Shown in pieces: positions 37,459 through 59,033 of a stretch of 64,000 bases of DNA. The notes beneath the pieces are model-generated. The model did not search any database and was not told the origin of the DNA. It was given only the letters and a program-made list of their open reading frames with translations. The position numbers were made by a program, and so were the translations under genes. Position 1 is the stretch's first letter; the number at the start of each line of letters is the position of its first letter. The stretch lies in IMG/VR virus record IMGVR_UViG_3300020046_004077; one strand, 5' to 3'. This stretch comes from a virus. Lineage: Duplodnaviria; Heunggongvirae; Uroviricota; Caudoviricetes.

Positions 37459-37650
37459 ATGACAAAATTAATTGAATCAGATTTCAAGCAGAAAATCGAA
37501 CTTTACAAGGGAGCTTATGACCGTATGGTTAGTAACAAGAAAGCAGCACAAGATCGCGAGTCCACTAATAAAGTTGTTGAAACCGGAAGAAGTAGATCTA
37601 TCAACGATCTTACTGACGAGCAATTCAACGCTATGTTTGGAAGAGACTGA
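37459..37650 (+). CDS. hypothetical small protein
   Basis: 63-aa ORF overlapping the 5' extension of the polymerase ORF in another frame. Confidence 0.3.
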   Translation: MTKLIESDFKQKIELYKGAYDRMVSNKKAAQDRESTNKVVETGRSRSINDLTDEQFNAMFGRD

Positions 37651-39739
37651 GTTTAAAGATTGGTGGGTATTAGGTCATGATATTGAGAATAAGGGTGACT
37701 TTCCTGTAAAGGAGAATCTTATTCTTAGCTCTTTCTGTAATGATGGAGAGAATGTACTAACTATTGATAATACAAGTGTAGACAACAGTGAAGTATTCTC
37801 AAAAGAGGTACTTGCTCATTGTCTATTCGTAGCTCATAATGCTGATCATGAAGCTTCTTGGGGAGTAAGAACAAACTTCTTACCAGCCAGGTATGCTTGT
37901 ACAATGGTTAATAGTAAACGTCTTTTATCCGGTCAGGAAGGGTATAGATTTGATTTGGTTTCAGAAATCTCACGAAGATTAGGACCAAAAGCAATTCCTG
38001 AATGGATGAATAAAGACATCAGGAGTCAATTTAGTGACCATGATGGTACCTTAACAGACGATCAAGTTTTATACAATGCAGCTGACACTATTCGACTTAA
38101 ACAGCTTCTTGCTGAGCAAATCAGACAAGCAGCAATACAAAATCAACTTTTCCTCAACAACACAATTAACTCCAGACTCATTATCCCCATCGCTGAAGCA
38201 GAAATGTATGGAATTAGACACGATGCGGACAAATGGAGTGAGATTGCAAGAGACAGGAAAACAAAAGCAGATGAAATATGCAAAGAACTAGACGGGTTAG
38301 TGGTACAACAGTATCAGATAAACCCGGAAGAAATAAATCCAACTCTAAAAAAAGAGAGGGAGAAGAAAGAAAGAAAAGAAAACAAGTTAGAGGTAAGAAT
38401 AACAAAACTTCAAACCCAGTTAAAAAGACTACAGGACGCAAACAAAACCCATCTAAAGTCTTATCTCAAACAGAAGGAACAACTGGAGAAACTTCTTACT
38501 ACACCGCAAGAGTCGGTTCAGGAGGAAAGTGGCATTATTAACTGGGGCTCACAACCTCAAGTATTAAAGTTCTTTAACAAAGTTGGAGTTCCTTTACCTC
38601 AAGCTAAAGATAAAAAGACAAGAGAGTTTAAACCCAGTGTAGGAAAGGAAGCACGAGCTAACTGGTTTGTAAATAACCAAGATTCTCCATTTTATCCTGT
38701 CATGGAGAAATTTGACAAGTATAAAAAGTTAATCCACAATGTAAACTCTTTTGGAGAGAAGTGGATAGTACAATATACCAATCCTATTACAGGGAGAGTA
38801 CATACTAAACTTGATCAAGCTGGAGCTGATACTGGCAGGTTTACTTCAGGTTCTAAAGGAAAGAATAAGAAGTATCCAAACATGCAACAAATACCAAGTC
38901 CACCTGAATACAGGGGTTGTTTTGGAGATGGTGAGGGAAGAACAATAATCACCCTTGATTACGCTAATTGCGAAGGTGTTGTTATGACTTCTCTATCCGG
39001 TGACATGAATATGAAACAGATTATCCAGATGAAGGATAGTCATTCATATCTTGGTACTAAGTCTTGGAGGGAGATATACAAATATCGCTATAAGAAAACT
39101 AGTGATCCTAAATGGCTTGAGTTGTCTCAAAACTATGAGATGAACAAATCTACTCCGGAAAAGGATAAGGAAAGAACTGTATTTAAAAACAGTGGGGGAT
39201 TATTCCCTGTTGCTTATGGAGTTGCTGCAGCTAAAGTTGCTGCTACTTCTAAAATAACAAATCAGGAAGGTCAGGTAATGATTGATGCTATTAAAGCAGA
39301 AATTCCTGATGTGATTAACTTCTTAGACGGCAAGTCTAAAGAAGCTGTAGAAACCGGTTACGTAGTACATAATACACGTACAGGTTCAAGGAGATGGTTT
39401 AGTTCAATATTAAACCATAAGCATTATGGCTGGCCATTAAGTAAGTCAGAGATAGCTGAAGTTGAGTTTGCTGCAAGAAATAGTCCTATCCAAGGGACAA
39501 ACAGTGACTTAATGAAAGAAGCTATTTGTATGATAGACTTGTGGCGCAGACTATTTAAACAAGACATTCGGTTTATGCTCACAGTCCATGATGAGTATGT
39601 TTGTAGTGTACCTACAGAACAAGCTGAGTTTCTTGGAGAGAAAATTAAAGAATTAATGAAAAGAGCAGCCAAACACTACTTGATCAAAGAGATTGAAATG
39701 GACGTAGATATGCGCATTGCTCCACATTGGAAAAAATGA
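37472..39739 (+). CDS. DNA polymerase I family (family A); true start probably downstream (~37650) of the ORF-track start
   Basis: VAHNADHE (ExoII-like H-N-A-x-x-D), LDQAGADTGRFTSG...KYPNMQQIPS (pre-motif A TGR[LF]SS...PN[LM]Q[NQ]IP), TVHDEYV (motif C HDE). Confidence 0.8.
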   Translation: MNQISSRKSNFTRELMTVWLVTRKQHKIASPLIKLLKPEEVDLSTILLTSNSTLCLEETEFKDWWVLGHDIENKGDFPVKENLILSSFCNDGENVLTIDNTSVDNSEVFSKEVLAHCLFVAHNADHEASWGVRTNFLPARYACTMVNSKRLLSGQEGYRFDLVSEISRRLGPKAIPEWMNKDIRSQFSDHDGTLTDDQVLYNAADTIRLKQLLAEQIRQAAIQNQLFLNNTINSRLIIPIAEAEMYGIRHDADKWSEIARDRKTKADEICKELDGLVVQQYQINPEEINPTLKKEREKKERKENKLEVRITKLQTQLKRLQDANKTHLKSYLKQKEQLEKLLTTPQESVQEESGIINWGSQPQVLKFFNKVGVPLPQAKDKKTREFKPSVGKEARANWFVNNQDSPFYPVMEKFDKYKKLIHNVNSFGEKWIVQYTNPITGRVHTKLDQAGADTGRFTSGSKGKNKKYPNMQQIPSPPEYRGCFGDGEGRTIITLDYANCEGVVMTSLSGDMNMKQIIQMKDSHSYLGTKSWREIYKYRYKKTSDPKWLELSQNYEMNKSTPEKDKERTVFKNSGGLFPVAYGVAAAKVAATSKITNQEGQVMIDAIKAEIPDVINFLDGKSKEAVETGYVVHNTRTGSRRWFSSILNHKHYGWPLSKSEIAEVEFAARNSPIQGTNSDLMKEAICMIDLWRRLFKQDIRFMLTVHDEYVCSVPTEQAEFLGEKIKELMKRAAKHYLIKEIEMDVDMRIAPHWKK

Positions 39740-45341: not shown

Positions 45342-46328
45342 ATGGACTTTGATGAAGTTTACAAGTCCATAGTTCTTACAGAAGAAGCTGTACTTGATCT
45401 GGTAGATGAGTACACTTTGTACTGCTATTACACAGGAATAGATAATATCATTCCTGGTAAAGCTTATCAAGCTCCTTATTACAGAAAAGACAATTATCCA
45501 AGCTTCTCCATTTATGAGTGTAGATCCCCACGTATTGAATATATGTGGAAGGACCACGCTACAGGTGAAGCAGGTAGTATCTTTAAGTTGATACGGATGA
45601 TTGAAGGGCTTAACAATTCAAATGAAGTACTTGCAAGGATAAATGAAGATTTCGACTTAGGTTACAATACCACTAATCCAGTTAGGAAAGAGAAGATTGT
45701 ATGGTATGAAAAACCTGTTGAAAACAACATTAAAATAAAAGTAGTCGATTGTAATTTGACTAAGGTGGCGAAAGAGTACTGGTCTACCTTAAAAGTAGAT
45801 CAGGCTCTTTTATCCTTTTTTAACGCAGGTCAAGTTAAATTTTATTGGACATACGAAGGTCAAGCTACTCCACAACTAGCCCCAGACCCAATGTTTTACT
45901 ACAGAGTAGGAGAATATTACCAACTCTACGCCCCTTATGTAGACAAGAAATATAAATTCAGGAATGATCTTCCTGAAAACTATTTTCTTGGATATATGCA
46001 ACTCCCCAAGACTGGTCAAAAGCTTGTAATTGACAAGTCAATGAAGGATGTTATCTTTTGTCATAGACTGGGATTTCCTGCAGTAAGTGGGAAGAGTGAA
46101 ACAACTATGATTCCACACAATAAAATGCTTGAACTAAAAGAACGATTTGACGAAGTTTACTTAACTCTTGATCCTGATGCTGCTGGAAGAAAGCAGGTAG
46201 AGAAATACATGTCTCTATATCCTTGGCTAAAACCAAGATTTCTCGAAGAAGCTAAGGACAAAAGTGATCTATGTTTCAAGTATGGATTTGAACACGCTCA
46301 AGAAACAATAAATAAATTATTAACATGA
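45342..46328 (+). CDS. Toprim-domain DNA primase
   Basis: VIFCHRLGFPAVSGKSE...EVYLTLDPDAAGRK (Toprim E...DxD...G motif). Confidence 0.5.
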   Translation: MDFDEVYKSIVLTEEAVLDLVDEYTLYCYYTGIDNIIPGKAYQAPYYRKDNYPSFSIYECRSPRIEYMWKDHATGEAGSIFKLIRMIEGLNNSNEVLARINEDFDLGYNTTNPVRKEKIVWYEKPVENNIKIKVVDCNLTKVAKEYWSTLKVDQALLSFFNAGQVKFYWTYEGQATPQLAPDPMFYYRVGEYYQLYAPYVDKKYKFRNDLPENYFLGYMQLPKTGQKLVIDKSMKDVIFCHRLGFPAVSGKSETTMIPHNKMLELKERFDEVYLTLDPDAAGRKQVEKYMSLYPWLKPRFLEEAKDKSDLCFKYGFEHAQETINKLLT

Positions 46329-46684
46329 AAGACGGAATGATTGTATTCCCGGCAGTAGATCTGGAAGGTGATCGAAAATTAACCCTTGCGGCAGAAGTAC
46401 ATACTTTGCGTGATGATGAAGATGATGCAGTTGGAAGAGTAGCTACATTTGGTTATTCAATAAAGAATCCCAGTGATAAAGAGAATACCGAATTAGCTAA
46501 AGTAATTGCTAAAGGAAGGGCTTCAAAGAGTCCTGTTTTTATCTTCTCTACAGCAGGTTATGATATGCCAAGAGAGTTACTTAACAAAGTAGCAACTGTA
46601 GTACAAGAAGAGTTTAAAACACGACTTAATTACTACGTTCCATTATCAAAGAAAAAAGATGGAACAAGCAAAAAGATTCAATAA
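46325..46684 (+). CDS. hypothetical protein
   Basis: 119-aa ORF. Confidence 0.3.
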   Translation: MKDGMIVFPAVDLEGDRKLTLAAEVHTLRDDEDDAVGRVATFGYSIKNPSDKENTELAKVIAKGRASKSPVFIFSTAGYDMPRELLNKVATVVQEEFKTRLNYYVPLSKKKDGTSKKIQ

Positions 46685-46997
46685 AGGCAAACTCCGCTGG
46701 GGTTTAGTTGATTTTGAAGCAGTTGGTGAAATGGTCAAAGTCCTGGAAGCAGGAGCAATTAAGTACGGACCTGATAATTGGAAAAAAGGATTAAACAGAG
46801 AAGAAATCCTTGAATCAATACAGAGACACTTAATTTCAACCTTTGAAAAAGAAGAGGTTGATCAGGAACTTGGCACTTATCACATAGCTAACATAATGGC
46901 TAACTGTATGTTTTACCTATACCATCACAGAAATGATAGTTTCAGTGATCAAAGGAACAATCCCTTTGTAAAACAAGAGATTGAAAAGAAGGCTTAA
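46659..46997 (+). CDS. dATP/dGTP pyrophosphohydrolase-like protein (N-terminal domain type)
   Basis: NKGKLRWGLVDFEAV...AGAIKYGPDNWKKG resembles the NxGKxRxxLxP...GAxKY..NW signature of phage dNTP diphosphohydrolase domains. Confidence 0.4.
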   Translation: MEQAKRFNKGKLRWGLVDFEAVGEMVKVLEAGAIKYGPDNWKKGLNREEILESIQRHLISTFEKEEVDQELGTYHIANIMANCMFYLYHHRNDSFSDQRNNPFVKQEIEKKA

Positions 46998-47021: not shown

Positions 47022-47294
47022 ATGAGTAAATTTTTAGACCGCCTGAACCAAGGCAAAGACGAAAAGAATGCAGCTTCAAACAAATTGGTTGCATCAAACG
47101 CAAAAGCACAAACTGAGCAAGAGGTTTCTCGTTTGACTGCTAAAGCAGCTACATTGGAAGCAGCTTATGAAGCAGCTTTCAGTGATGGTAATTTCCAAAT
47201 CAACCGTGTATTCGGTTTGGTGAAGGAAATTGAGGAAAACAAAAATAACCTCGCCCTCGCTAAGAAAATTCTGTCTGAAGAATTTGCAGACTAA
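47022..47294 (+). CDS. hypothetical coiled-coil protein
   Basis: 90-aa ORF. Confidence 0.3.
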   Translation: MSKFLDRLNQGKDEKNAASNKLVASNAKAQTEQEVSRLTAKAATLEAAYEAAFSDGNFQINRVFGLVKEIEENKNNLALAKKILSEEFAD

Positions 47295-47316: not shown

Positions 47317-47562
47317 ATGAGCACACGTAAAATTGTGGGGACATCTACAGCAGCACCAGGTCAGAACACTGTCTTTTCGGCAGCTACTACCTGGGGCCAG
47401 CTGAAGAGCGAAGACGCTGAATTAGGCGCTCGGTCCATTGGAATGAAAGCCTTTGTAAAAGAAACCAGTACTTCTCTTACAAGCGACAGTCAATCCCTAC
47501 CTGAAGGAGACTTTACATTGTACTTCTTAGTAGAGAAAAATGACTCAGGCAAAAACGACTAA
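47317..47562 (+). CDS. candidate ThiS/MoaD-like beta-grasp ubiquitin-like protein with C-terminal tail beyond a Gly
   Basis: 81 aa; C-terminus EGDFTLYFLVEKNDSG-KND parallels MoaD/ThiS dGDEVAFFPPVsGG; N-terminus RKIVGTS... could form the first beta-strand. Confidence 0.35.
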   Translation: MSTRKIVGTSTAAPGQNTVFSAATTWGQLKSEDAELGARSIGMKAFVKETSTSLTSDSQSLPEGDFTLYFLVEKNDSGKND

Positions 47563-47759
47563 CGAAGAATCAGGTAATGTTATTCCTGAAGTGCTTGAAG
47601 TTATAGATGCTTTTGTAAAGCAGTTTGAACAACAAAATCACTTAGTGAATAGCAAAAAACCAAGCGAAGAAGACGATACTCCTTTCTAAAAGGAAAAATA
47701 GAGTTTTTATTTAAAGGTGGGGTTAATACCTCACCTTTTTACTCTTTGCAAACAGATAA

Positions 47760-49031
47760 ATGAGAAAATTATTTAAAATTAGCCGAAAGGCTATAGAAGA
47801 ATTTTATGGTTCTTATCCTAGATACGTTACTCACTATTCCTTGGGTCCCGGACATTCAGAAGGAAGACATAAACTACCAGTCAAAGAAGAATATGATTTA
47901 AGTGTATTAGCAAATCACGGTCCAGTATCTTATGTAAAGGTACACGGTATTGGAGATAGTGCATTTTTACCCGTATTACGTAAAGATTTAATAGAAGTTG
48001 AGTTACCAGATGCTATAGTTGAATTTAAAGAAGTGTTGGAGAGCTTACATCCTGGGCATTATTATATGCCTGACGATAATGGTATAATTTACATTCACTA
48101 CCCTGAGTTAACAATAACTAACAGTCATGATGCAAGTCATAAAATCTATGACTTAGTTGTTAATTTTACAGTAGATCCAACAAACGGTACTTTACTTTCA
48201 TCTTTATATGGTATGAGGTTCTCTTTAAGTCAAAGAGAACTAGCAAAAGGTTACATTCATTCACACTTAAAAACTAATTATCACTCTTTTAATAATCCTT
48301 TCTGTTTAGGGGGAGGTAGTACCTTTCAAAAGATGGTCAATAATTTGTGTTGTTCAGGCAGTGTGACAAAGGAACAGTTTGAGTTATTTATTTTACAGTT
48401 AAACTCTTATTTATGTTGGGAAAGTCTTGAAGGTACTCCCCACATGAGTATTTTAAGCTTGTCTGGAGCTATAGCAGATTCTGGAGATAGTGCTTTTCGT
48501 ACAACAGATGAAATTTTAAATCTGGAAAAGTTAGGTGGTAAAACATGTATGTCTTTTATTGATACTAATCTTGACAGCATTTACTTTACTCCATTAGGAA
48601 TTCCTGTATTTGATCCTGGTCTGGTTAGCAAAAAGTTTTTTGACTTTGAGGTAAATACTTTAACTAAAATAGTAGCTGGGGCTCACTTAAAACAGTGGAA
48701 TGAAGATACAGGACAGTATGTGGTTAGTGGAGTTAATCAGACTTCAAACACTTATAGCTTACCGAGAGATGTTTTAGATTACTATGAAAGCTATAGACTT
48801 AATAAACACCTTCCTGGTATCAAACCAAGAGTGATAGAAGAAGAACAAAATACGAATAAAACAAAAACAATTACCAGGTTATCAAGAACAGCAATAGAGG
48901 TAGTAACCAGAGGAACTAATTCAATATTGATACAAGCATTAAATAAACATGCAAAAAGAACAAACCCCAAAGAGGGAAGTACTAGTAGTAGTAACAGAGA
49001 AGTTAGCAGGGCAAATACACTTCCTGCATAG
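47760..49031 (+). CDS. unknown 423-aa protein in Ubl/JAB/E1 cassette (candidate E2-like or substrate)
   Basis: No clear motif; HSFNNPFCLGGGS and LCCSGS Cys patches; overlaps JAB ORF by 83 nt. Confidence 0.3.
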   Translation: MRKLFKISRKAIEEFYGSYPRYVTHYSLGPGHSEGRHKLPVKEEYDLSVLANHGPVSYVKVHGIGDSAFLPVLRKDLIEVELPDAIVEFKEVLESLHPGHYYMPDDNGIIYIHYPELTITNSHDASHKIYDLVVNFTVDPTNGTLLSSLYGMRFSLSQRELAKGYIHSHLKTNYHSFNNPFCLGGGSTFQKMVNNLCCSGSVTKEQFELFILQLNSYLCWESLEGTPHMSILSLSGAIADSGDSAFRTTDEILNLEKLGGKTCMSFIDTNLDSIYFTPLGIPVFDPGLVSKKFFDFEVNTLTKIVAGAHLKQWNEDTGQYVVSGVNQTSNTYSLPRDVLDYYESYRLNKHLPGIKPRVIEEEQNTNKTKTITRLSRTAIEVVTRGTNSILIQALNKHAKRTNPKEGSTSSSNREVSRANTLPA

Positions 49032-50046
49032 TCAATGTCCTACAGGAACAGAATGGTCAGGACTTTTAGTCTACCAAATTGTTGAAGGGGATGTTGACGA
49101 ATTCACAAAAAACGATAAAGCTTACTTAGAAATAAAGGCTGAAGCTGTGTTCCCAATGGATTTTGGAGACGCAGGATTCACCAGCTTTGAGGGGAGTGTA
49201 GATTGGATTAAATGTTTCCAGCAATACCCTCAAATTGATCCAATGAATCCCGAACCGGGCTGGTATGTGGGTAAAATTCATAGCCACCATAACATGAACG
49301 TGTTTCATTCAGTAACAGATAACACTGACTTAGAACAAAATGCTCCTAAGTTACCTATCTTCCTTTCACTTATTGTAAATTATAAGTGTGAGTTAGATTG
49401 CAAATTAGCGATTGCTATGGAGTCCAAGGAGATAGTTCTTACAAGAACAGAATGGAAGTTTAAGAGTTGGAAGACTTGGAAAAAAGCGGTAAAGAAAGAG
49501 GAAAAACAAAAACCTGGTGTATTTACCATTGCTTGTAAGACTACTTATGAGCAAGAAGATTGGTTTGTAGATCAAACAGAACAGCTTGCAGCAAGAAAGA
49601 AAACCTCGCAGTATAGCTACAAACCACCTCAACAAGAAAGTACTAATAAAGTATTACTTCCCCATGAGGGAGATGCGGCTACAGACGTTAGTCAGGAAAC
49701 AATGAAGAGAGTTCTTAATAACTTCCCGGAACTTGTTTCTTTAAACTGTTTGAAGTTAGTAACTCCACTTGAATCAATAACAGTAGTTGATCGGGATTTG
49801 AAGGTGGAAGATATGGAAAACTATAAGAAAGCGTTTAAAGCTTACTTTACAAGTGTTTGGTTTGATAAACACTTTTCTGACACTAAGATTGAACATACAG
49901 AAGTTCTTGATGGTATTAGGAAGTTTCTAAATCATCATCACGGTTGGCTTGTAGGACATTTAAAGAATTTAACTAATGAGCTCAGAGAAGAATACGACTC
50001 ACTTTGGCCGTTTCAAGGGTCTTCCGTGGTTCGAGCCGATCTCTAA
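48949..50046 (+). CDS. JAB/MPN+ (JAMM) metallopeptidase with ~200-aa C-terminal extension
   Basis: N-terminal domain: ...TEWSGLLVYQ (conserved Glu) ... GWYVGKIHSHHNMNVFHSVTD = H-x-H-x7-S-x2-D JAMM zinc motif. Confidence 0.65.
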   Translation: MQKEQTPKREVLVVVTEKLAGQIHFLHSQCPTGTEWSGLLVYQIVEGDVDEFTKNDKAYLEIKAEAVFPMDFGDAGFTSFEGSVDWIKCFQQYPQIDPMNPEPGWYVGKIHSHHNMNVFHSVTDNTDLEQNAPKLPIFLSLIVNYKCELDCKLAIAMESKEIVLTRTEWKFKSWKTWKKAVKKEEKQKPGVFTIACKTTYEQEDWFVDQTEQLAARKKTSQYSYKPPQQESTNKVLLPHEGDAATDVSQETMKRVLNNFPELVSLNCLKLVTPLESITVVDRDLKVEDMENYKKAFKAYFTSVWFDKHFSDTKIEHTEVLDGIRKFLNHHHGWLVGHLKNLTNELREEYDSLWPFQGSSVVRADL

Positions 50047-50731
50047 TTCCAGTATCTTTATTGGAGGTGCTGGAGGAATATCATCCTGGTTAACTTTCTT
50101 TCTTGCAAGAGCCGGGGCTACTATTTATGTAGTAGACAACGATGTAGTAGATGAAGTAAATCTTGCCGGTCAATTGTACGGTAAGGAAGACGTAGGTAAG
50201 AGTAAAGTTGAAGCCATTTCAGATGTAGTTACAAGACTTTGTGGAGAGAATAACATAACCCCTGTAGAAACCTTTATAGATGAAAATGGAGGGTTGTGGA
50301 CTAACTTGATAGCTCAGAGTGATGTAGTTTGCGTAGGTTTTGACAACCTTAAAGCAAGGGAACTTGTATACAAGGAGTGGAGGGCTAATGGTAAAGAAAA
50401 GTCATTCTTTGTTGACGGAAGATTGTCAGCAGAAAATGGTCAGATTTTCACTCTTTCCAAAGACTCTTTGGAACTGGATTTTACAGCTTATGAGCAAACT
50501 TATTTTCCTGAATCAGAAAGGGTAGAATTACCTTGCAGTATGAAAGCTACAAGTCATTGCGGGGCTTTAATAGCATCATTAATGACTGCTCAGATTACTA
50601 ATTGGTTTAATAATGGTTTAGAGGAGAATGTTCCAAGAACTACTTCAAATATTGAATTTCATTTACAATTAATGATTTTCGATCAACCAAAGTACAAAGT
50701 AAAAACAGAAGTTTATGTTAACGAAGTTTAG
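49976..50731 (+). CDS. ThiF/MoeB/E1-like adenylyltransferase (ubiquitin-activating-enzyme family)
   Basis: IFIGGAGGISSWLTFFLARAGATIYVVDNDVVDEVNLAGQ = E1 Rossmann GxGxxG plus D-x-D...N-L-x-x-Q nucleotide-binding signature; CGALIASLMTAQI matches the E1 G..G...A.E..K region; Cys in PCSMKATSHCG. Confidence 0.65.
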   Translation: MSSEKNTTHFGRFKGLPWFEPISNSSIFIGGAGGISSWLTFFLARAGATIYVVDNDVVDEVNLAGQLYGKEDVGKSKVEAISDVVTRLCGENNITPVETFIDENGGLWTNLIAQSDVVCVGFDNLKARELVYKEWRANGKEKSFFVDGRLSAENGQIFTLSKDSLELDFTAYEQTYFPESERVELPCSMKATSHCGALIASLMTAQITNWFNNGLEENVPRTTSNIEFHLQLMIFDQPKYKVKTEVYVNEV

Positions 50732-51551
50732 TGGAGAAGAATGGATTTTAACTTATCCAGTTGAAGTAACAAGCCCTGATCAGTTTATTCCTTTATTTAC
50801 AGCTTTCGATTCTGATGTTATTTACACTCACAGAAGGTATAGATTCAACTACGTTCTACAGGGGCAGGGGATGTATTTAGTTTTATCTGATGAAAAAGAC
50901 TTGGGAGTTAGTAGCAAAAACTATACAGCAGAGGAGGTAAGAGAAAGACTAATAAAACAATTCAACTATAGTTATCCTGACAGATATTCAGTTCCTTTAA
51001 GTTACAGGGTTGTTAAGAATAATGTTAGTTATGGCTCAGGCTGGAATGACTTAGTTAAGACTTTTAACGGGTTGTCTCCATGCTTCTATGATGGTACTTA
51101 TTATGCACTTCCAGGTTTGGTTTGTAAAATGCAAGGTTCTAATTACAGTTCTGCAATAAGCACCTTGTCCAGTAAACAATTTTTAGCTCATACTATTTTC
51201 AGGAGACATGATTTGTTGTTTGCTTTTAAACCATGTGCTTTAGTGTTAGTTAAAGCTAAACATATTCCACTAATAAGAATATGCCAGCATTTAGAACAAC
51301 CTTTCAACATTCCTTTTGAAGACTTTAAACTCTTTACTATAAACAACCCTGACGTTTACGAAGGCAGGGCTATTAAGGAAGTATTGTCAACAAGTAGTGG
51401 ATTTGGGCAGTTTATAAGCAAGAACAGTGTGGAAAGGAACTATGTAGACAAAGAGGTAATGGATAGTTATTTAATTGGTCCTTACAGTGTTCCTTCTAAA
51501 GCAAACCTTGTAGAACTTGCTAAAACTGTAGTTGAAGAACAAAACCTTTAA
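50715..51551 (+). CDS. unknown 278-aa protein downstream of E1
   Basis: No motif recognised; start overlaps E1 stop. Confidence 0.3.
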   Translation: MLTKFSGEEWILTYPVEVTSPDQFIPLFTAFDSDVIYTHRRYRFNYVLQGQGMYLVLSDEKDLGVSSKNYTAEEVRERLIKQFNYSYPDRYSVPLSYRVVKNNVSYGSGWNDLVKTFNGLSPCFYDGTYYALPGLVCKMQGSNYSSAISTLSSKQFLAHTIFRRHDLLFAFKPCALVLVKAKHIPLIRICQHLEQPFNIPFEDFKLFTINNPDVYEGRAIKEVLSTSSGFGQFISKNSVERNYVDKEVMDSYLIGPYSVPSKANLVELAKTVVEEQNL

Positions 51552-52006
51552 TGACGAACGGAAAGAGAAACAGGCAAGCAGGACATAGATTTGAATTGTT
51601 CTGTGTTAATGCCTTTAAGCAAGCTGGATTTAATGACGTTGTTTCGTCCAGAAGTTCTAACAGAAGCAGAGATGCTCAGAAGATTGATCTGGTGAACAGA
51701 GATGAAATAAATTCAGGCAGATTGCCTTGGGCAGTTCAATGTAAGAATGTTGCAGGTACTTTAAAGTATCCTGCTGTTCTTGCAGAATTACCTAATGAAC
51801 CAGGAATAACAAAAGTTATTCTACATAACCAAACTCAAAAGGTTGGTAATAGGTTCATAACGAGAGACAGGTTTGCTATAATGTATATGAATGACTTTAT
51901 GGCAATAGTGAAGAAACTAAGAGAGTATGAACAAAGAGATGTTAGGAGAGTCGTGGTTCAAAGTACTGGAACAGGAAATGAATCAAGAACGGTTCCAACA
52001 ACTTAA
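51551..52006 (+). CDS. PD-(D/E)xK nuclease, Hjc-like Holliday junction resolvase
   Basis: GHRFELF...AGFNDVVSSRSS..SRDAQKIDLVN...WAVQCK = E ... D ... (Q)xK pattern and spacing of archaeal-type Hjc resolvases. Confidence 0.45.
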   Translation: MTNGKRNRQAGHRFELFCVNAFKQAGFNDVVSSRSSNRSRDAQKIDLVNRDEINSGRLPWAVQCKNVAGTLKYPAVLAELPNEPGITKVILHNQTQKVGNRFITRDRFAIMYMNDFMAIVKKLREYEQRDVRRVVVQSTGTGNESRTVPTT

Positions 52007-52643
52007 ATCAGAATTGAAGAATGAGTATGCTAAATATCCTGTAAGACCAGCTCCAGCTGACATCTTTAAAGCATTTAAATTATGTGCATTTGAAGATACA
52101 AGAATAGTTGTAATCGGGCAGGATCCTTATCCGTTTGGTAGTCATGCTGATGGATTAGCTTTCTCTTCTAAAGAAGAAGATACACCAGCATCCTTGAGAT
52201 ATATCTTGAGAGAAGTAGATCGGGATATTACCCGTACTACTTCTTATCAGGAGTATAAACAAGCTTTTCCAACTAACAGGTTGGATAGCTGGGCTAAACA
52301 GGGTATATTGCTACTTAATACTTCTTTAACTGTAAGAGCTGGGGAACCAAACTCCCACAAAGAACTTGGTTGGACCCCATTTATTGAGTTTGTATTAACA
52401 AGTTTATGGAATCTGGACAGAAGTCTGGTTTTTGTAGTTTGGGGAGAACAAGCAAAGAAAGCATTACTTCCTGTAGTTAAAGCTAACCCTAAACAAGTTC
52501 ACTATATTCTTGAATCAGGACATCCTGCTTCAGGAAGTCATGGTAAGGATAAATTCTCAGGTTGTAATCATTTTTCAAAAATTAATAACTATTTTTACAG
52601 GGGCCAGTTACCTGAAATAGACTGGAAACTTAATGCAAACTGA
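51927..52643 (+). CDS. ung: uracil-DNA glycosylase (family 1 UNG-like); start probably internal (overlaps resolvase)
   Basis: VIGQDPYPFGSHADGLAFS (GQDPY water-activating loop + HG.AFS) and C-terminal ESGHPASGS (HPSPLS-like). Confidence 0.7.
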   Translation: MNKEMLGESWFKVLEQEMNQERFQQLKSELKNEYAKYPVRPAPADIFKAFKLCAFEDTRIVVIGQDPYPFGSHADGLAFSSKEEDTPASLRYILREVDRDITRTTSYQEYKQAFPTNRLDSWAKQGILLLNTSLTVRAGEPNSHKELGWTPFIEFVLTSLWNLDRSLVFVVWGEQAKKALLPVVKANPKQVHYILESGHPASGSHGKDKFSGCNHFSKINNYFYRGQLPEIDWKLNAN

Positions 52644-56196: not shown

Positions 56197-57060
56197 TTGA
56201 TAGCTTCTCCTGTATGTAAAAATAGAGCCTACGAAGACGAGCGTAAAGATGCAAGATTGACGATCTTGCGATGGCTTACTTTTATTATGAAATACGAAAG
56301 AATAAAGTATCCTGATGGACAGATCTCAGTTAAAATAACTGATATAGAAGGTCCGTTGGAGATCAGAGAAAGAATAAACTCTTATGAAGACTTGTTCTTC
56401 TTAAGAGCATTAGCTGATGCTATTCACACAGCTTATGCAGACCCAATCATTCATGTAGCAATACCTTGTATGTTTGGTCAAAGAAGTGATCGTAGGTTTC
56501 ATCCTCACCAATCCTTTGACTTAAAGTTAATTGCTGAAGTAATTAATAGCTGTAATTTTACAACTGTTAATATCCTGGATCCTCATTCAGACGTAACACT
56601 TGCTTTAATTAATAAGTCTTACAAAGAAGGTGTTGAACACTTTGTAACTCAAGCCGTTGAGTCTATAGCTAAATTAACAAAAGAAGAGATAGTACTTGTT
56701 TCCCCCGATGCCGGAGCGTACAAGAAAGTATTTGAACTAGGTACTAATCTTGAACTTCCTGTAGTTGCGGGAGTTAAGCACAGAGATAACGAAGGAAAAA
56801 TAGATCTTCAGTTTACAGGAGATGTAAAAGACAAGAATTGTCTTATTGTAGACGACATTTGCGATGGTGGGTACACATTCATCGTTCTTGCTAAAAAGCT
56901 TCTTGAACAAGGAGCAAAGCGTGTGTACCTCTATGCTACTCATGGATATTTTTCCAAGGGTATTAATGTATTAGAAGATTGTGGTTTATCACACATCTTC
57001 TGTACTAATTCAGTAAAGGATGTAGATCATCCATTTGTAACTCAATTTAAAATAATATGA
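56197..57060 (+). CDS. prs: ribose-phosphate pyrophosphokinase-like (PRPP synthetase / type I PRTase fold)
   Basis: 287 aa; PRPP-binding loop NCLIVDDICDGGYTF, N-terminal Prs-like domain. Confidence 0.55.
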   Translation: MIASPVCKNRAYEDERKDARLTILRWLTFIMKYERIKYPDGQISVKITDIEGPLEIRERINSYEDLFFLRALADAIHTAYADPIIHVAIPCMFGQRSDRRFHPHQSFDLKLIAEVINSCNFTTVNILDPHSDVTLALINKSYKEGVEHFVTQAVESIAKLTKEEIVLVSPDAGAYKKVFELGTNLELPVVAGVKHRDNEGKIDLQFTGDVKDKNCLIVDDICDGGYTFIVLAKKLLEQGAKRVYLYATHGYFSKGINVLEDCGLSHIFCTNSVKDVDHPFVTQFKII

Positions 57061-57129: not shown

Positions 57130-57321
57130 ATGGGGTCGATTTTGAGTCGAATTAACGATGACTACGAAGAATATGAGTACGTATGTGATTTATTGAACAT
57201 ACGTCCTCATTTCTTGAGAGGGTTAAAAGAAGGAGATACTTTCTACAACCACCTTAAACAACTCTGTAATGAACATGGTGTTCATACAGTAGATGAATTA
57301 ATTAAAAAATTGAAAAAATGA
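57130..57321 (+). CDS. hypothetical small protein
   Basis: 63-aa ORF. Confidence 0.25.
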   Translation: MGSILSRINDDYEEYEYVCDLLNIRPHFLRGLKEGDTFYNHLKQLCNEHGVHTVDELIKKLKK

Positions 57322-59033
57322 ATCCACTACTATTAGTTGATTATTATAAAACGGAACATCATCGTATGCTACCAGAAGGTACTACAATGATCTATTCCAA
57401 CTTCACTCCAAGAAAGAGTAGAATTCCTGGAATAGACAAGGTTGTATTCTTTGGATTACAGCATTTCTGTCTTGAGTATTTGATTAAAGAATTTGACAAG
57501 CTCTTCTTTCACAAACAGGACATAGAGAATGAAGTTGAAAGACTTGGAGGTCTTCAAGGAGTTGACAGTAAAACATTAACCACTATCAAGTTAATTTACA
57601 AGTCCTCTGTTATTAAAGAGTATCAGAAGCACATTCCTGTAGATACTAAGCACATTGAAGCTTTGTGGGATTTAGGTTATTTACCTATTGAAATTAAAGC
57701 TGTTCCAGAAGGTACTTTAGTTCCAATTGGAGTTCCCTGCTTTACAATTAAAAATACACATCCTGACTTTGCCTGGTTAACAAATTACTTGGAAACCTTA
57801 ATTTCAACTATGATGTGGCAACCAATTACTTCAGCAACAATAGCTTATGAATACAAAAAAGTCCTTTCAAAATACGCATTGGAAACTACAGGATCTTCAG
57901 AATTCGTTCAGTGGCAAGGTCATGACTTTTCTATGCGTGGTATGTCTAGTATTGAATCCGCTATTCTTTCTGGCATGGGTCATCTTACATCGTTTACCGG
58001 AACGGATACTATTCCAGCTATATATCAGCTTGAAGAATCTTACGGAGCTACAGGGCTTATCGGTGCTTCTGTACCTGCTACTGAGCACAGTGTTATGTGT
58101 ATGGGTACTAAAGAAGCTGAGGTGGACACCTTCAAAAGGCTTCTGGATCTATATCCTACTGGTATTCTTAGTGTCGTTTCTGATACATGGAATCTTTGGG
58201 AAGTCCTGACAGTTCACCTTCCTCAAATTAAGGATCAAATCCTTTCAAGAGATGGTAAACTTGTTATTCGTCCAGATTCTGGTGACCCTGTAGATATTCT
58301 ATGTGGAGTAGAGTATTATCAAAATACGGATGGGAAATATTACTACAAGCGTGGAGGACAACTTAAGGAAGTACCTGAACCAGAAAGAAAAGGTGTAATT
58401 GAACTTCTCTGGGATTTGTTTGGAGGTAAAGTAAATGAATATGGATATAAAGAACTTGATCCTCATATTGGTGCTATCTATGGCGATTCTATCACTCTGG
58501 AACGTGCCGCTCAGATTTGTGAGAGACTCAAAGCTAAAGGTTTCGCTTCGACTAATGTGGTTCTTGGTATTGGTAGTTACACTTACCAGTATAATACTCG
58601 TGATACTTTCGGCTTTGCGATGAAAGCTACCTACGGTGAAGTATTAAATGTACCTACTGTTAAAGTAAAGAAGGCTGGAGGAGAAGAAGTTGAAATAGCT
58701 TTTGATCGTTCTAACCCTAAACATCTTGATCTTATCAAAGCAACTTACAGTCTGACTGGTAGAGAAGATCTTGTTGAAACTAGAGAAATCTACAAAGATC
58801 CAATTACTGATGATGGTACTAAGAGGTCTAAGAAAGGTCTTTTACAAGTATTTAACAATTATTGGGATACTCATCCAGCAATGCAGAAGTTTGATGGAAC
58901 TGATGAGTTGAAAGTAAATGATCAATGTACTTGGGAACAAGAAAACGGAGGCTTACTTGAAACTGTTTTCAAAAACGGTGAGTTAGTAAGAACTACTACC
59001 CTGGAAGAAATCAGAGAAAGATTGAAAGTATGA
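57318..59033 (+). CDS. nadV: nicotinamide phosphoribosyltransferase (NadV/Nampt) with C-terminal extension
   Basis: 571 aa; N-terminus MNPLLLVDYYKTEHHRMLPEGTT matches the Nampt N-terminal motif (D-x-YK-x-xH); overall type II PRTase-like. Confidence 0.65.
   Translation: MNPLLLVDYYKTEHHRMLPEGTTMIYSNFTPRKSRIPGIDKVVFFGLQHFCLEYLIKEFDKLFFHKQDIENEVERLGGLQGVDSKTLTTIKLIYKSSVIKEYQKHIPVDTKHIEALWDLGYLPIEIKAVPEGTLVPIGVPCFTIKNTHPDFAWLTNYLETLISTMMWQPITSATIAYEYKKVLSKYALETTGSSEFVQWQGHDFSMRGMSSIESAILSGMGHLTSFTGTDTIPAIYQLEESYGATGLIGASVPATEHSVMCMGTKEAEVDTFKRLLDLYPTGILSVVSDTWNLWEVLTVHLPQIKDQILSRDGKLVIRPDSGDPVDILCGVEYYQNTDGKYYYKRGGQLKEVPEPERKGVIELLWDLFGGKVNEYGYKELDPHIGAIYGDSITLERAAQICERLKAKGFASTNVVLGIGSYTYQYNTRDTFGFAMKATYGEVLNVPTVKVKKAGGEEVEIAFDRSNPKHLDLIKATYSLTGREDLVETREIYKDPITDDGTKRSKKGLLQVFNNYWDTHPAMQKFDGTDELKVNDQCTWEQENGGLLETVFKNGELVRTTTLEEIRERLKV

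Follow-up and report, generated by a model that had tools for sequence, protein, structure and literature searches.

A predicted ubiquitin-like processing, activation, and transfer pathway encoded in the replication module of crAss-like phages

Positions 47317–51551 of the 64-kb window (the whole stretch of viral DNA analyzed here) carry a cassette of five co-directional plus-strand genes encoding a small ubiquitin-like protein (Ubl), a probable E2-like protein of 423 residues, a JAB/JAMM metallopeptidase, a minimal E1/ThiF-family enzyme, and a fast-evolving protein of 278 residues. We interpret the cassette, with a probability of roughly 60%, as a self-contained, phage-encoded pathway for processing, activating, and transferring the Ubl. 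The folds, the conservation of catalytic residues, the precursor-like tails, and the gene order were computed; all of the chemistry, the E2 role, and the biological role are inferred. The original prediction, made from the letters of the window, described five consecutive, partly overlapping plus-strand genes of one phage. All five open reading frames (ORFs) were confirmed at their coordinates and in that order, with overlaps, if the most upstream start codons are assumed, of 83 nt between the 423-residue and JAB genes, 71 nt between the JAB and E1 genes, and 17 nt between the E1 and 278-residue genes. The prediction overlooked a 49-residue ORF (here called X) and a terminator-like hairpin that lie between the first and second genes; none of the three outcomes that it had listed as refuting it was observed, and its parts stand, but the cassette extends to six genes plus the hairpin and is found throughout a phage lineage.

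Synteny in other phages, which the original prediction had proposed to look for, is extensive. Using a profile of the E1, 80 viral loci were retrieved, and their ORFs were classified with hidden Markov models (HMMs) built iteratively from the window proteins. The order Ubl, 423-residue family, JAB, E1 recurs in about 80 of 85 crAss-like loci, including those of crAss001, DAC15, and FpV4, and the 278-residue family covers 63 of 71 unique loci. Sizes across the loci range from 72 to 330 residues for the Ubl, 300–600 for the 423-residue family, 340–500 for the JAB, and 222–477 for the E1. The cassette typically lies near primase, uracil-DNA glycosylase (UDG), or resolvase genes, and all of the approximately 90 loci are inside the replication module of crAss-like phages. 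A tblastn search with the window E1 finds homologs in 74 phage records, with identities of 39% to the Flavobacterium psychrophilum FpV4 group and approximately 35% to crAss001-like Crassvirales of Bacteroides. In FpV4 and cr85_1 the gene order is primase, a 220–290-residue gene, a 370–420-residue gene, a “metalloprotease domain” gene, and “ThiF,” with a uracil-DNA glycosylase gene nearby; metagenomic relatives on contigs of 46–100 kb have their genes ordered as in the window. Across the lineage E1 identity drops to approximately 30%. Hosts belong to both Bacteroides and Flavobacterium, and assemblies of Chitinophaga and Puia contain related copies. That the cassette stays at one place in the replication module and persists over such deep divergence points to a core role inside the infected cell and not to an optional accessory.

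The JAB/JAMM metallopeptidase (365 residues; 48949–50046, plus strand) has its catalytic domain at approximately residues 13–160. As the original prediction claimed, a JAMM motif (HSHHNMNVFHSVTD; 49279–49320) is accompanied by an upstream Glu (Glu35, in TEWSG). Glu35, His111, His113, Ser121, and Asp124 are 97–100% conserved in 70 homologs and have the canonical HxH-x7-S-xx-D spacing, and translating the window in six frames gives a single copy of the motif, against 0.12 per shuffled window. A JAB family profile aligns the motif with the active site of CSN5 (E = 0.022), while the match to Pfam Prok-JAB (PF14464) is weak (E = 0.0054, with 17 bits where the cut-off is 25). Judged from its sequence, the protein is a divergent JAB member, recognized by motif rather than by profile. 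The C-terminal 200 or so residues are poorly conserved. In GenBank, the crAss001 homolog is labeled “metalloprotease domain containing protein.”

The E1 (251 residues; 49976–50731, plus strand) is a minimal adenylation enzyme with a single ThiF domain at residues 19–217. The E1/ThiF signature that had been noticed earlier is the nucleotide-binding GAGGISS (50066–50086), and it is backed by a match to Pfam ThiF (PF00899) with an E-value of 1.4e-24 and 87 bits against a cut-off of 28.1 bits; the E1 motif occurs once in the translated window and 0.04 times per shuffled window. Invariant or near-invariant residues in the family are Gly31, Gly33, Gly34, Ser37, Arg45, Asp54, Asp56, Asn62, Gln66, Lys77, Asp123, Arg128, Asp147, Arg149, and Cys187 (codon 50534–50536), with no variation at Cys187 or at the residues for ATP and Mg. 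The best PDB sequence matches, MccB, UBA5, TcdA, PaaA, MoeB, and ThiF, are about equally distant (E = 1e-12 to 1e-10), and no PDB sequence matches the C-terminal half of the enzyme. Public records label the homologs “thiamine biosynthesis protein ThiF” (crAss001, FpV4), a single record giving “E1 enzyme family protein”; the thiamine label is a transfer of the family name and not a functional assignment.

The Ubl precursor (81 residues; 47317–47562, plus strand) is predicted to form a β-grasp domain (residues 4–72) followed by a flexible tail, and the predicted fold matches the whole ubiquitin superfold. The fold was resolved by structure prediction alone: profile searches against PDB sequences and hhalign comparisons with MoaD and ubiquitin returned nothing significant, and Pfam returned no match. 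The earlier description of a ThiS/MoaD-like Ubl thus keeps its β-grasp and loses the specific ThiS/MoaD label, for which there is no sequence signal. An exhaustive profile search yielded 157 representative homologs with total lengths of 71–309 residues, in all of which the domain is N-terminal. The window protein ends in EKNDSG followed by the three-residue tail KND, the last residue of the former being Gly78 (codon 47548–47550). This Gly is invariant (67 of 67 locus homologs; 85 of 85 representatives), is preceded by Ser or Ala, with Lys usual at position −2, and sits in a tail of low predicted confidence (pLDDT), always with at least one residue after it. None of the 85 representatives ends at the Gly: it is followed by 1–3 residues in 26, 4–10 in 10, 11–40 in 20, and 41–100 in 29, and the long extensions contain no Pfam domains. 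If the Gly is the reactive end, every member would therefore need C-terminal cutting, and removal of the KND tail fits these comparative data.

The 197-nt gap between the Ubl and 423-residue genes accommodates X, an acidic ORF of 49 residues (MTQAKTTNEESGNVIPEVLEVIDAFVKQFEQQNHLVNSKKPSEEDDTPF; 47540–47689, plus strand) that is read in the +1 frame and shares 23 nt with the end of the Ubl gene. X is the equivalent of a C-terminal extension that is fused to the Ubl in most relatives. In close relatives the two are fused in frame; in one of them, P0144, the junction reads EKNNSG and then GELTPEVAKMIEEF, with ADIPF at the end of the protein, and an HMM of X matches this fused tail end to end (E = 6e-4). 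X-like ORFs are present in most relatives with a short Ubl, and without exception in the clade to which the window belongs; JGI gene calling predicted X independently (L096). The X-like ORFs end in D-x-(P/S)-F in the window's clade and in (R/K)ELG-x in several other clades, and the C-terminal extensions of long-form Ubls finish with the same endings. By these sequence comparisons, the ancestral or common form is a Ubl-X fusion, which the window carries in split form. Programmed frameshifting as a means of fusing Ubl and X is not supported, as X has its own ATG in the +1 frame and a proper slippery heptamer is lacking. X ends in EEDDTPF, and no other ORF in the window has such an ending. The C-terminal tail motif of bacterial single-stranded DNA-binding protein (SSB) is DDDIPF; the acidic D-x-P-F end of X resembles it, which is a lead.

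Directly 3′ of X, between the Ubl and X genes and the enzyme genes, is the terminator-like hairpin (47713–47738, plus strand, with a T-rich tail to 47748), formed of an 11-bp stem and a 4-nt loop. Of 63 unique loci, 89% have a hairpin of −13 kcal/mol or lower at the equivalent site, whereas only 3.3% of windows drawn at random from these loci contain one. What is kept among loci is the position; the sequences are not conserved. We infer a conserved terminator or attenuator that separates modifier genes from enzyme genes, by which the modifier would be made in excess over the enzymes.

The probable E2-like protein (423 residues; 47760–49031, plus strand) has three predicted domains. In an AlphaFold2 model (pLDDT 74.7), a small SH3-like N-terminal β-barrel (approximately residues 44–82) precedes a UBC-like core (approximately residues 85–230; 48012–48449) and a further, C-terminal α/β domain. 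The core comprises one helix, a three- to four-stranded meander, a loop bearing His167-Ser-His169 (48258–48266) and the invariant Cys182 (48303–48305), and then two helices. The HSH motif lies 13–15 residues upstream of the Cys. Conserved residues of the family are Asn121, Arg153, Tyr165, the HSH motif, Cys182, Gly184, and E221-S-x-x-G-x-P. Neither the window protein nor 60 relatives match anything in Pfam, NCBIfam, PADLOC, or the PDB sequences, and none of the 60 family members matches an E2 model (Pfam Prok-E2_A–E and UQ_con, PADLOC Cap2, or NCBIfam). An hhalign comparison with UBE2D2 found nothing, and a Foldseek search of the model against the PDB gave no significant hit. At the sequence level the protein is accordingly placed in an orphan family; that it is E2-like is probable, and rests on the modeled structure, the motif, and the genomic context. 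In two loci (L021, 3015–5085; L045, 2743–4990), two tandem paralogs of this gene stand ahead of the JAB gene, a hint that these phages have multiple conjugating or specificity modules.

The 278-residue protein (50715–51551, plus strand) is encoded after the E1 gene in most relatives. The genes at this position fall into three phmmer clusters (28, 26, and 9 members), linked by hhalign at 96% probability. Only Pro26, Tyr91, and Gly134 are conserved, and there is no catalytic signature; none of 60 members matches Pfam, and the PHROG family that is matched has no known function. The protein looks non-enzymatic, and its role could be that of an adaptor, a specificity factor, or a substrate. The earlier statement that the two large flanking proteins lack recognizable domains agrees with the lack of a Pfam match for either family. 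The suggestion that they supply an E2 and/or a substrate gains from the UBC-like core in the model of the 423-residue protein, and is not supported by E2 profiles or Foldseek.

In the pathway proposed here, the modifier would be made as a precursor, consisting of the 81-residue β-grasp protein and a separate X in the window, and of a single Ubl-X fusion in most relatives. The JAMM peptidase would cut directly after Gly78 and expose the Gly carboxylate, removing KND in the window and releasing X from the fusions. Cleavage at this point has precedent in the bacterial Bil and Bub systems, where the JAB of the operon was shown experimentally to cleave after a conserved Gly, including that of the BubAB fusion (PMC10557695; PMC11601596). 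The E1 would then use ATP to adenylate Gly78, and the Ubl would probably move onto Cys187 of the E1 as a thioester and be passed on to Cys182 in the UBC-like core of the 423-residue protein. The latter would attach the Ubl to lysines of target proteins, perhaps with help from its additional domains or from the 278-residue protein, and the JAB would presumably be able to reverse the attachment. We think that the pathway acts in the infected cell on host or phage proteins related to replication or repair.

Several points weigh against such a pathway. No target, E3, or conjugate is known for the cassette, and no experiments on any homolog were found in the searchable literature. The invariant Gly may be no more than the boundary of a domain. 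The E1, moreover, is a bare adenylation domain that has neither a UFD nor a separate Cys domain, an architecture that it shares with ThiF and MoeB. This minimal architecture is also that of E2-independent systems, such as archaeal SAMP/UbaA/JAMM1 or Thermus TtuB/TtuC, in which the E1 alone activates the Ubl. Were the phage cassette of this kind, its Ubl would be conjugated directly or have a dual role, and the 423-residue protein would be a target, a scaffold, or an unrelated enzyme with a Cys/His site. In Haloferax, a trio of JAB, Ubl, and E1 suffices for SAMPylation. The phage E1 matches the NCBIfam model for SAMP-activating E1 (E = 1.4e-14), and Foldseek and all of the sequence profiles leave the E2 assignment weak. 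An E2-independent system of this type is nevertheless judged unlikely.

A second alternative, to which we give a lower likelihood still, is a sulfur-carrier pathway, in which the E1 would thiocarboxylate the Ubl in the manner of ThiS, MoaD, CysO, or TtuB, the JAB would trim it as do Mec+ or DRJAMM, and the sulfur would be donated for a thio-modified nucleotide, DNA base, or cofactor specific to the phage. Such a role would suit a cassette set among DNA and nucleotide-metabolism genes, and clusters of JAB, ThiS/MoaD-like, and E1 genes tied to sulfur assimilation are known (PMC1779556). In addition, the best NCBIfam matches of the E1 are ThiF and MoeB, and hhalign against an E. coli ThiF sequence (97% probability) places Cys187 on Cys184, the residue of ThiF that forms an acyl-disulfide with ThiS, and Asp123 on Asp127. 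The same alignment, however, sets the zinc-site residues Cys169 and Cys172 of that ThiF sequence against non-Cys residues; no CxxC is present in the E1 family alignment, and the scores are far below all equivalog cut-offs (ThiF, NF006395, 67.3 bits against 159; MoeB, 58.9 against 449). Genes for thiamine, molybdopterin, or sulfur transfer were not found in the cassette or in the 12 neighboring ORFs scanned against Pfam, which likewise held no rhodanese, cysteine desulfurase, PP-loop thiolase, or acceptor resembling ThiG, MoaE, or CysM. Matches to ThiG, ThiH, ThiC, MoaE, MoaA, rhodanese, or desulfurase in Pfam, NCBIfam, or PHROG were also absent from the cassette and from 60 homologs each of the 423- and 278-residue families. 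The outcome that the original prediction had named as its own undoing, an ordinary ThiF/MoeB with cognate enzymes nearby, is thus not what the searches returned. Finally, the phage carrier ends in Ser-Gly plus a tail or a long fusion partner and has no free Gly-Gly, and such a pathway would leave the UBC-like protein, with its invariant Cys, no part to play.

A further alternative concerns the purpose of the cassette and not its chemistry: that it is a counter-defense device neutralizing host Bil, Bub, or type II CBASS, with the phage JAB stripping host Ubl or cGAS conjugates, or with the phage Ubl, E1, and E2 serving as decoys or tagging defense proteins. It is true that the only known functions of bacterial operons combining E1, E2, JAB, and Ubl are in phage defense (PMC10557695; PMC11601596), that the E1 weakly matches the E1 region of the PADLOC Cap2 models, that NAD-salvage genes are also present in the window, and that rapid evolution of the kind expected in an arms race is seen in the 278-residue protein and in the C-terminal parts of the JAB and of the E2-like protein. 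Known anti-defense genes are patchy and mobile, whereas this cassette keeps its position and gene order across deeply diverged phages of Bacteroides and Flavobacterium, and assemblies of Chitinophaga and Puia, like many environmental contigs, contain related copies. None of its proteins has specific similarity to those of Bil, Bub, or Cap3, and a complete 4-kb conjugation pathway exceeds the needs of a deconjugase decoy. We see only a slim chance that counter-defense is its purpose.

With Bil (BilABCD) the cassette, its E2 function being predicted, shares the same four functions: Ubl, E2, JAB/JAMM peptidase, and E1. The Bil operon encodes no E3, and its JAB trims the Ubl beforehand so that the C-terminal Gly is exposed (PMC10557695; PMC11601596). 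Bil is, however, a system of bacterial defense islands, while the present cassette sits in the replication module of a lytic-type phage. The Bil E1 has the composition IAD-AAD-CYS (PMC10557695; PMC11601596), in contrast to the single adenylation domain of the phage enzyme. The Ubls of Bil and Bub carry extra domains before the β-grasp, whereas the β-grasp of the phage Ubl is N-terminal and its extension follows the Gly. Compared with the Bil E2, the phage protein, at 423 residues, has an additional SH3-like N-terminal domain and an extra C-terminal domain. No profile-level similarity to Bil was found beyond the generic ThiF domain. Type I Bub (6E.1), composed of the Ubl-E2 fusion BubAB, the JAB-E1 fusion BubCD, and BubE, is alike in that the Ubl is released from a fusion by a JAB. 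It forms serine oxyesters and has an E1 that lacks a catalytic Cys, whereas the phage E1 and E2-like protein both have an invariant Cys. Where Bub fuses Ubl to E2 and JAB to E1, the phage pairs its Ubl with a small acidic peptide and encodes JAB and E1 by separate genes. The DUF6527 protease (BubE) had no Pfam match in the cassette or in the members of the 423- and 278-residue families that were scanned. Functionally, the cassette is most like Bil and type I Bub, and it is a member of neither.

Type II CBASS also employs E1, E2, and JAB chemistry in protein conjugation, and the E1 part of PADLOC Cap2 is weakly matched (best E = 1e-10), no better than is the case for any other ThiF-family protein. 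There the C-terminus of the cyclase acts as the “Ubl” and Cap2 is an E2-E1 fusion, whereas the phage has a dedicated β-grasp modifier and unfused enzymes; no CD-NTase was detected. Three further systems can be set aside. The ThiS-ThiF and MoaD-MoeB pairs differ in that the phage carrier ends in Ser-Gly plus tail or fusion, JAB and E2-like genes are always present, and acceptor enzymes are absent from the cassette and the neighboring ORFs scanned. In phages lambda and T1, TAPI has a Ubl domain fused to another domain, and the predicted cut by the JAB of TAPK (a fusion with NlpC/P60) follows the C-terminal Gly of that Ubl domain (PMC1779556). TAPI/TAPK is the only phage-borne pair of Ubl and JAB previously described, and it belongs to the tail module, with an NlpC/P60 fusion and no E1 or E2-like protein, in contrast to a cassette in the replication module that has activation and transfer enzymes. 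The PRTRC systems of plasmids and integrative and conjugative elements likewise combine a JAB-like and a ThiF-family protein on a mobile element. Membership was rejected, with scores of 14.4 bits against 101.8 for PRTRC_A (TIGR03735; E = 0.02) and 34 against 144.75 for PRTRC_ThiF (TIGR03736; E = 1.9e-8), no better than matches to other ThiF families. The cassette therefore belongs to none of these three systems. PHROG families of the cassette proteins are of unknown function, and the genes that bear neither the ThiF nor the metalloprotease label are “hypothetical” in public records. No literature linking crAss-like phages with ThiF, JAB, or ubiquitin, or describing phage-encoded Ubl conjugation, was found in a search outside of which lay many subscription papers. 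What is new is the sequence families of the Ubl and E2-like proteins, both invisible to Pfam, the phage carrier, and the precursor arrangement.

Nucleotide comparison of the window with known phages gave no match. Support for a phage origin comes from gene order conserved with Flavobacterium phage FpV4 and with Crassvirales genomes, and from contigs of approximately 92–100 kb that encode identical or related proteins. The window derives from a crAss-like phage, and a large crAss-like lineage has the cassette as one of its conserved features. A tblastn search with the cr85_1 E1 led back to the cultured phages matched by the window E1: the matches listed include crAss001, the PhiCrAssBcn series, DAC15/17, Kehishuvirus, Kolpuevirus, several human-fecal “cr” genomes, such as cr85_1 itself (Steigviridae), and the FpV4 group. 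The prototype crAssphage is not among the matches listed in this search of limited sensitivity. More distant ThiF/MoeB-like genes were seen with the same query in jumbo phages of Xanthomonas and Acinetobacter and in Moraxella phage Mcat22 (PV764601.1, PV764603.1, OQ603353.1, KR093646.1, and CAKLQH020000004.1).

No stand-alone bacterial cassette was found in a scan of one genome per species, the only copies being within phage-type replication modules. In Chitinophaga sp. YR573, a whole cassette with primase, resolvase, and UDG genes lies in a 4.83-Mb contig of an isolate (L089; NZ_FOJF01000001.1, 3747688–3762347), and a metagenome-assembled genome (MAG) of Puia sp. has a whole cassette with primase and resolvase genes inside a 373-kb contig (L088). 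These copies suggest an integrated or otherwise chromosome-associated crAss-like element, which would be unusual for a group regarded as non-temperate. The same replication module and cassette occur on contigs binned into a Thermotogaceae MAG (L085) and an MAG of Promethearchaeia, an Asgard archaeon (L086); these are most likely mis-binned phage contigs.

The surroundings of the cassette are a phage replication and nucleotide block, as the original prediction held: genes for a DNA polymerase, a helicase, a primase, and UDG-like and PRPP synthetase-like proteins are all neighbors. This block includes a family-A DNA polymerase (37472–39739), an SF2 helicase, a DnaB-like protein, an AAA_24 ATPase, and a 5′–3′ exonuclease-like gene; a gene for an SPFH/Band 7 domain protein of 408 residues (35513–36739, plus strand) lies upstream of the polymerase gene. 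A primase-like protein (45342–46328) is encoded upstream of the cassette, followed, just before it, by a small protein with a dGTP_diPhyd_N (PF18909) match (46659–46997, plus strand), which is kept at this side of the cassette in close relatives (L003, 3841–4107; L004, 3730–4056). Directly upstream of the Ubl gene is a gene for a 90-residue predicted coiled-coil protein (47022–47294, plus strand) with no Pfam or PHROG match. It co-occurs with the short, split form of the Ubl in 17 loci, and its membership of the cassette is uncertain; that it might be a detached piece of the long Ubl extension was rejected, no similarity having been found. Beyond the cassette, a gene for an Mrr_cat/RusA-like nuclease (PHROG 244; 51551–52006, plus strand) overlaps its end by 1 nt and is followed by the UDG-like gene (51927–52643, plus strand), a pair that also trails the cassette in many relatives. 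Farther downstream, a PRPP (phosphoribosyl pyrophosphate) synthetase-like gene (Pribosyl_synth/Pribosyltran; 56197–57060, plus strand) adjoins a nicotinamide phosphoribosyltransferase gene (NAPRTase family plus NAMPT_N; 57318–59033, plus strand). The two look like a phage NAD+ salvage pair, and such pairs have been linked to countering NAD-depleting defenses.

It is tempting to go further and regard the cassette as the first complete phage pathway for Ubl conjugation, with modifier, E1, E2, and isopeptidase, core to infection in this lineage and its cultured human-gut members, by which the phage would tag and hijack host or phage replication and repair proteins and would release, from a precursor built like a ubiquitin fusion, a peptide that mimics the SSB tail, a proposal that is tentative and that we would not favor at even odds. 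Prokaryotic Ubl conjugation has so far been characterized as a bacterial anti-phage weapon, in Bil, Bub, and type II CBASS; a phage set would reverse this picture, and, if the proposal is true, machinery of the Bil, Bub, and CBASS kind is used on both sides of the phage–host conflict. The conserved 4-kb block annotated as “ThiF” or “hypothetical” in a crAss-like phage that is among the most thoroughly studied now has a functional hypothesis. The fused and split forms of Ubl and X offer a natural handle on precursor processing, and, since cultured phage–host pairs carry the cassette, every step is directly testable. The cassette is conserved from human-gut Steigviridae (crAss001, DAC15/17) to phages of fish pathogens (FpV4), and also in numerous environmental contigs, which suggests that protein tagging serves phages in carrying out or safeguarding the replication of their own genomes.

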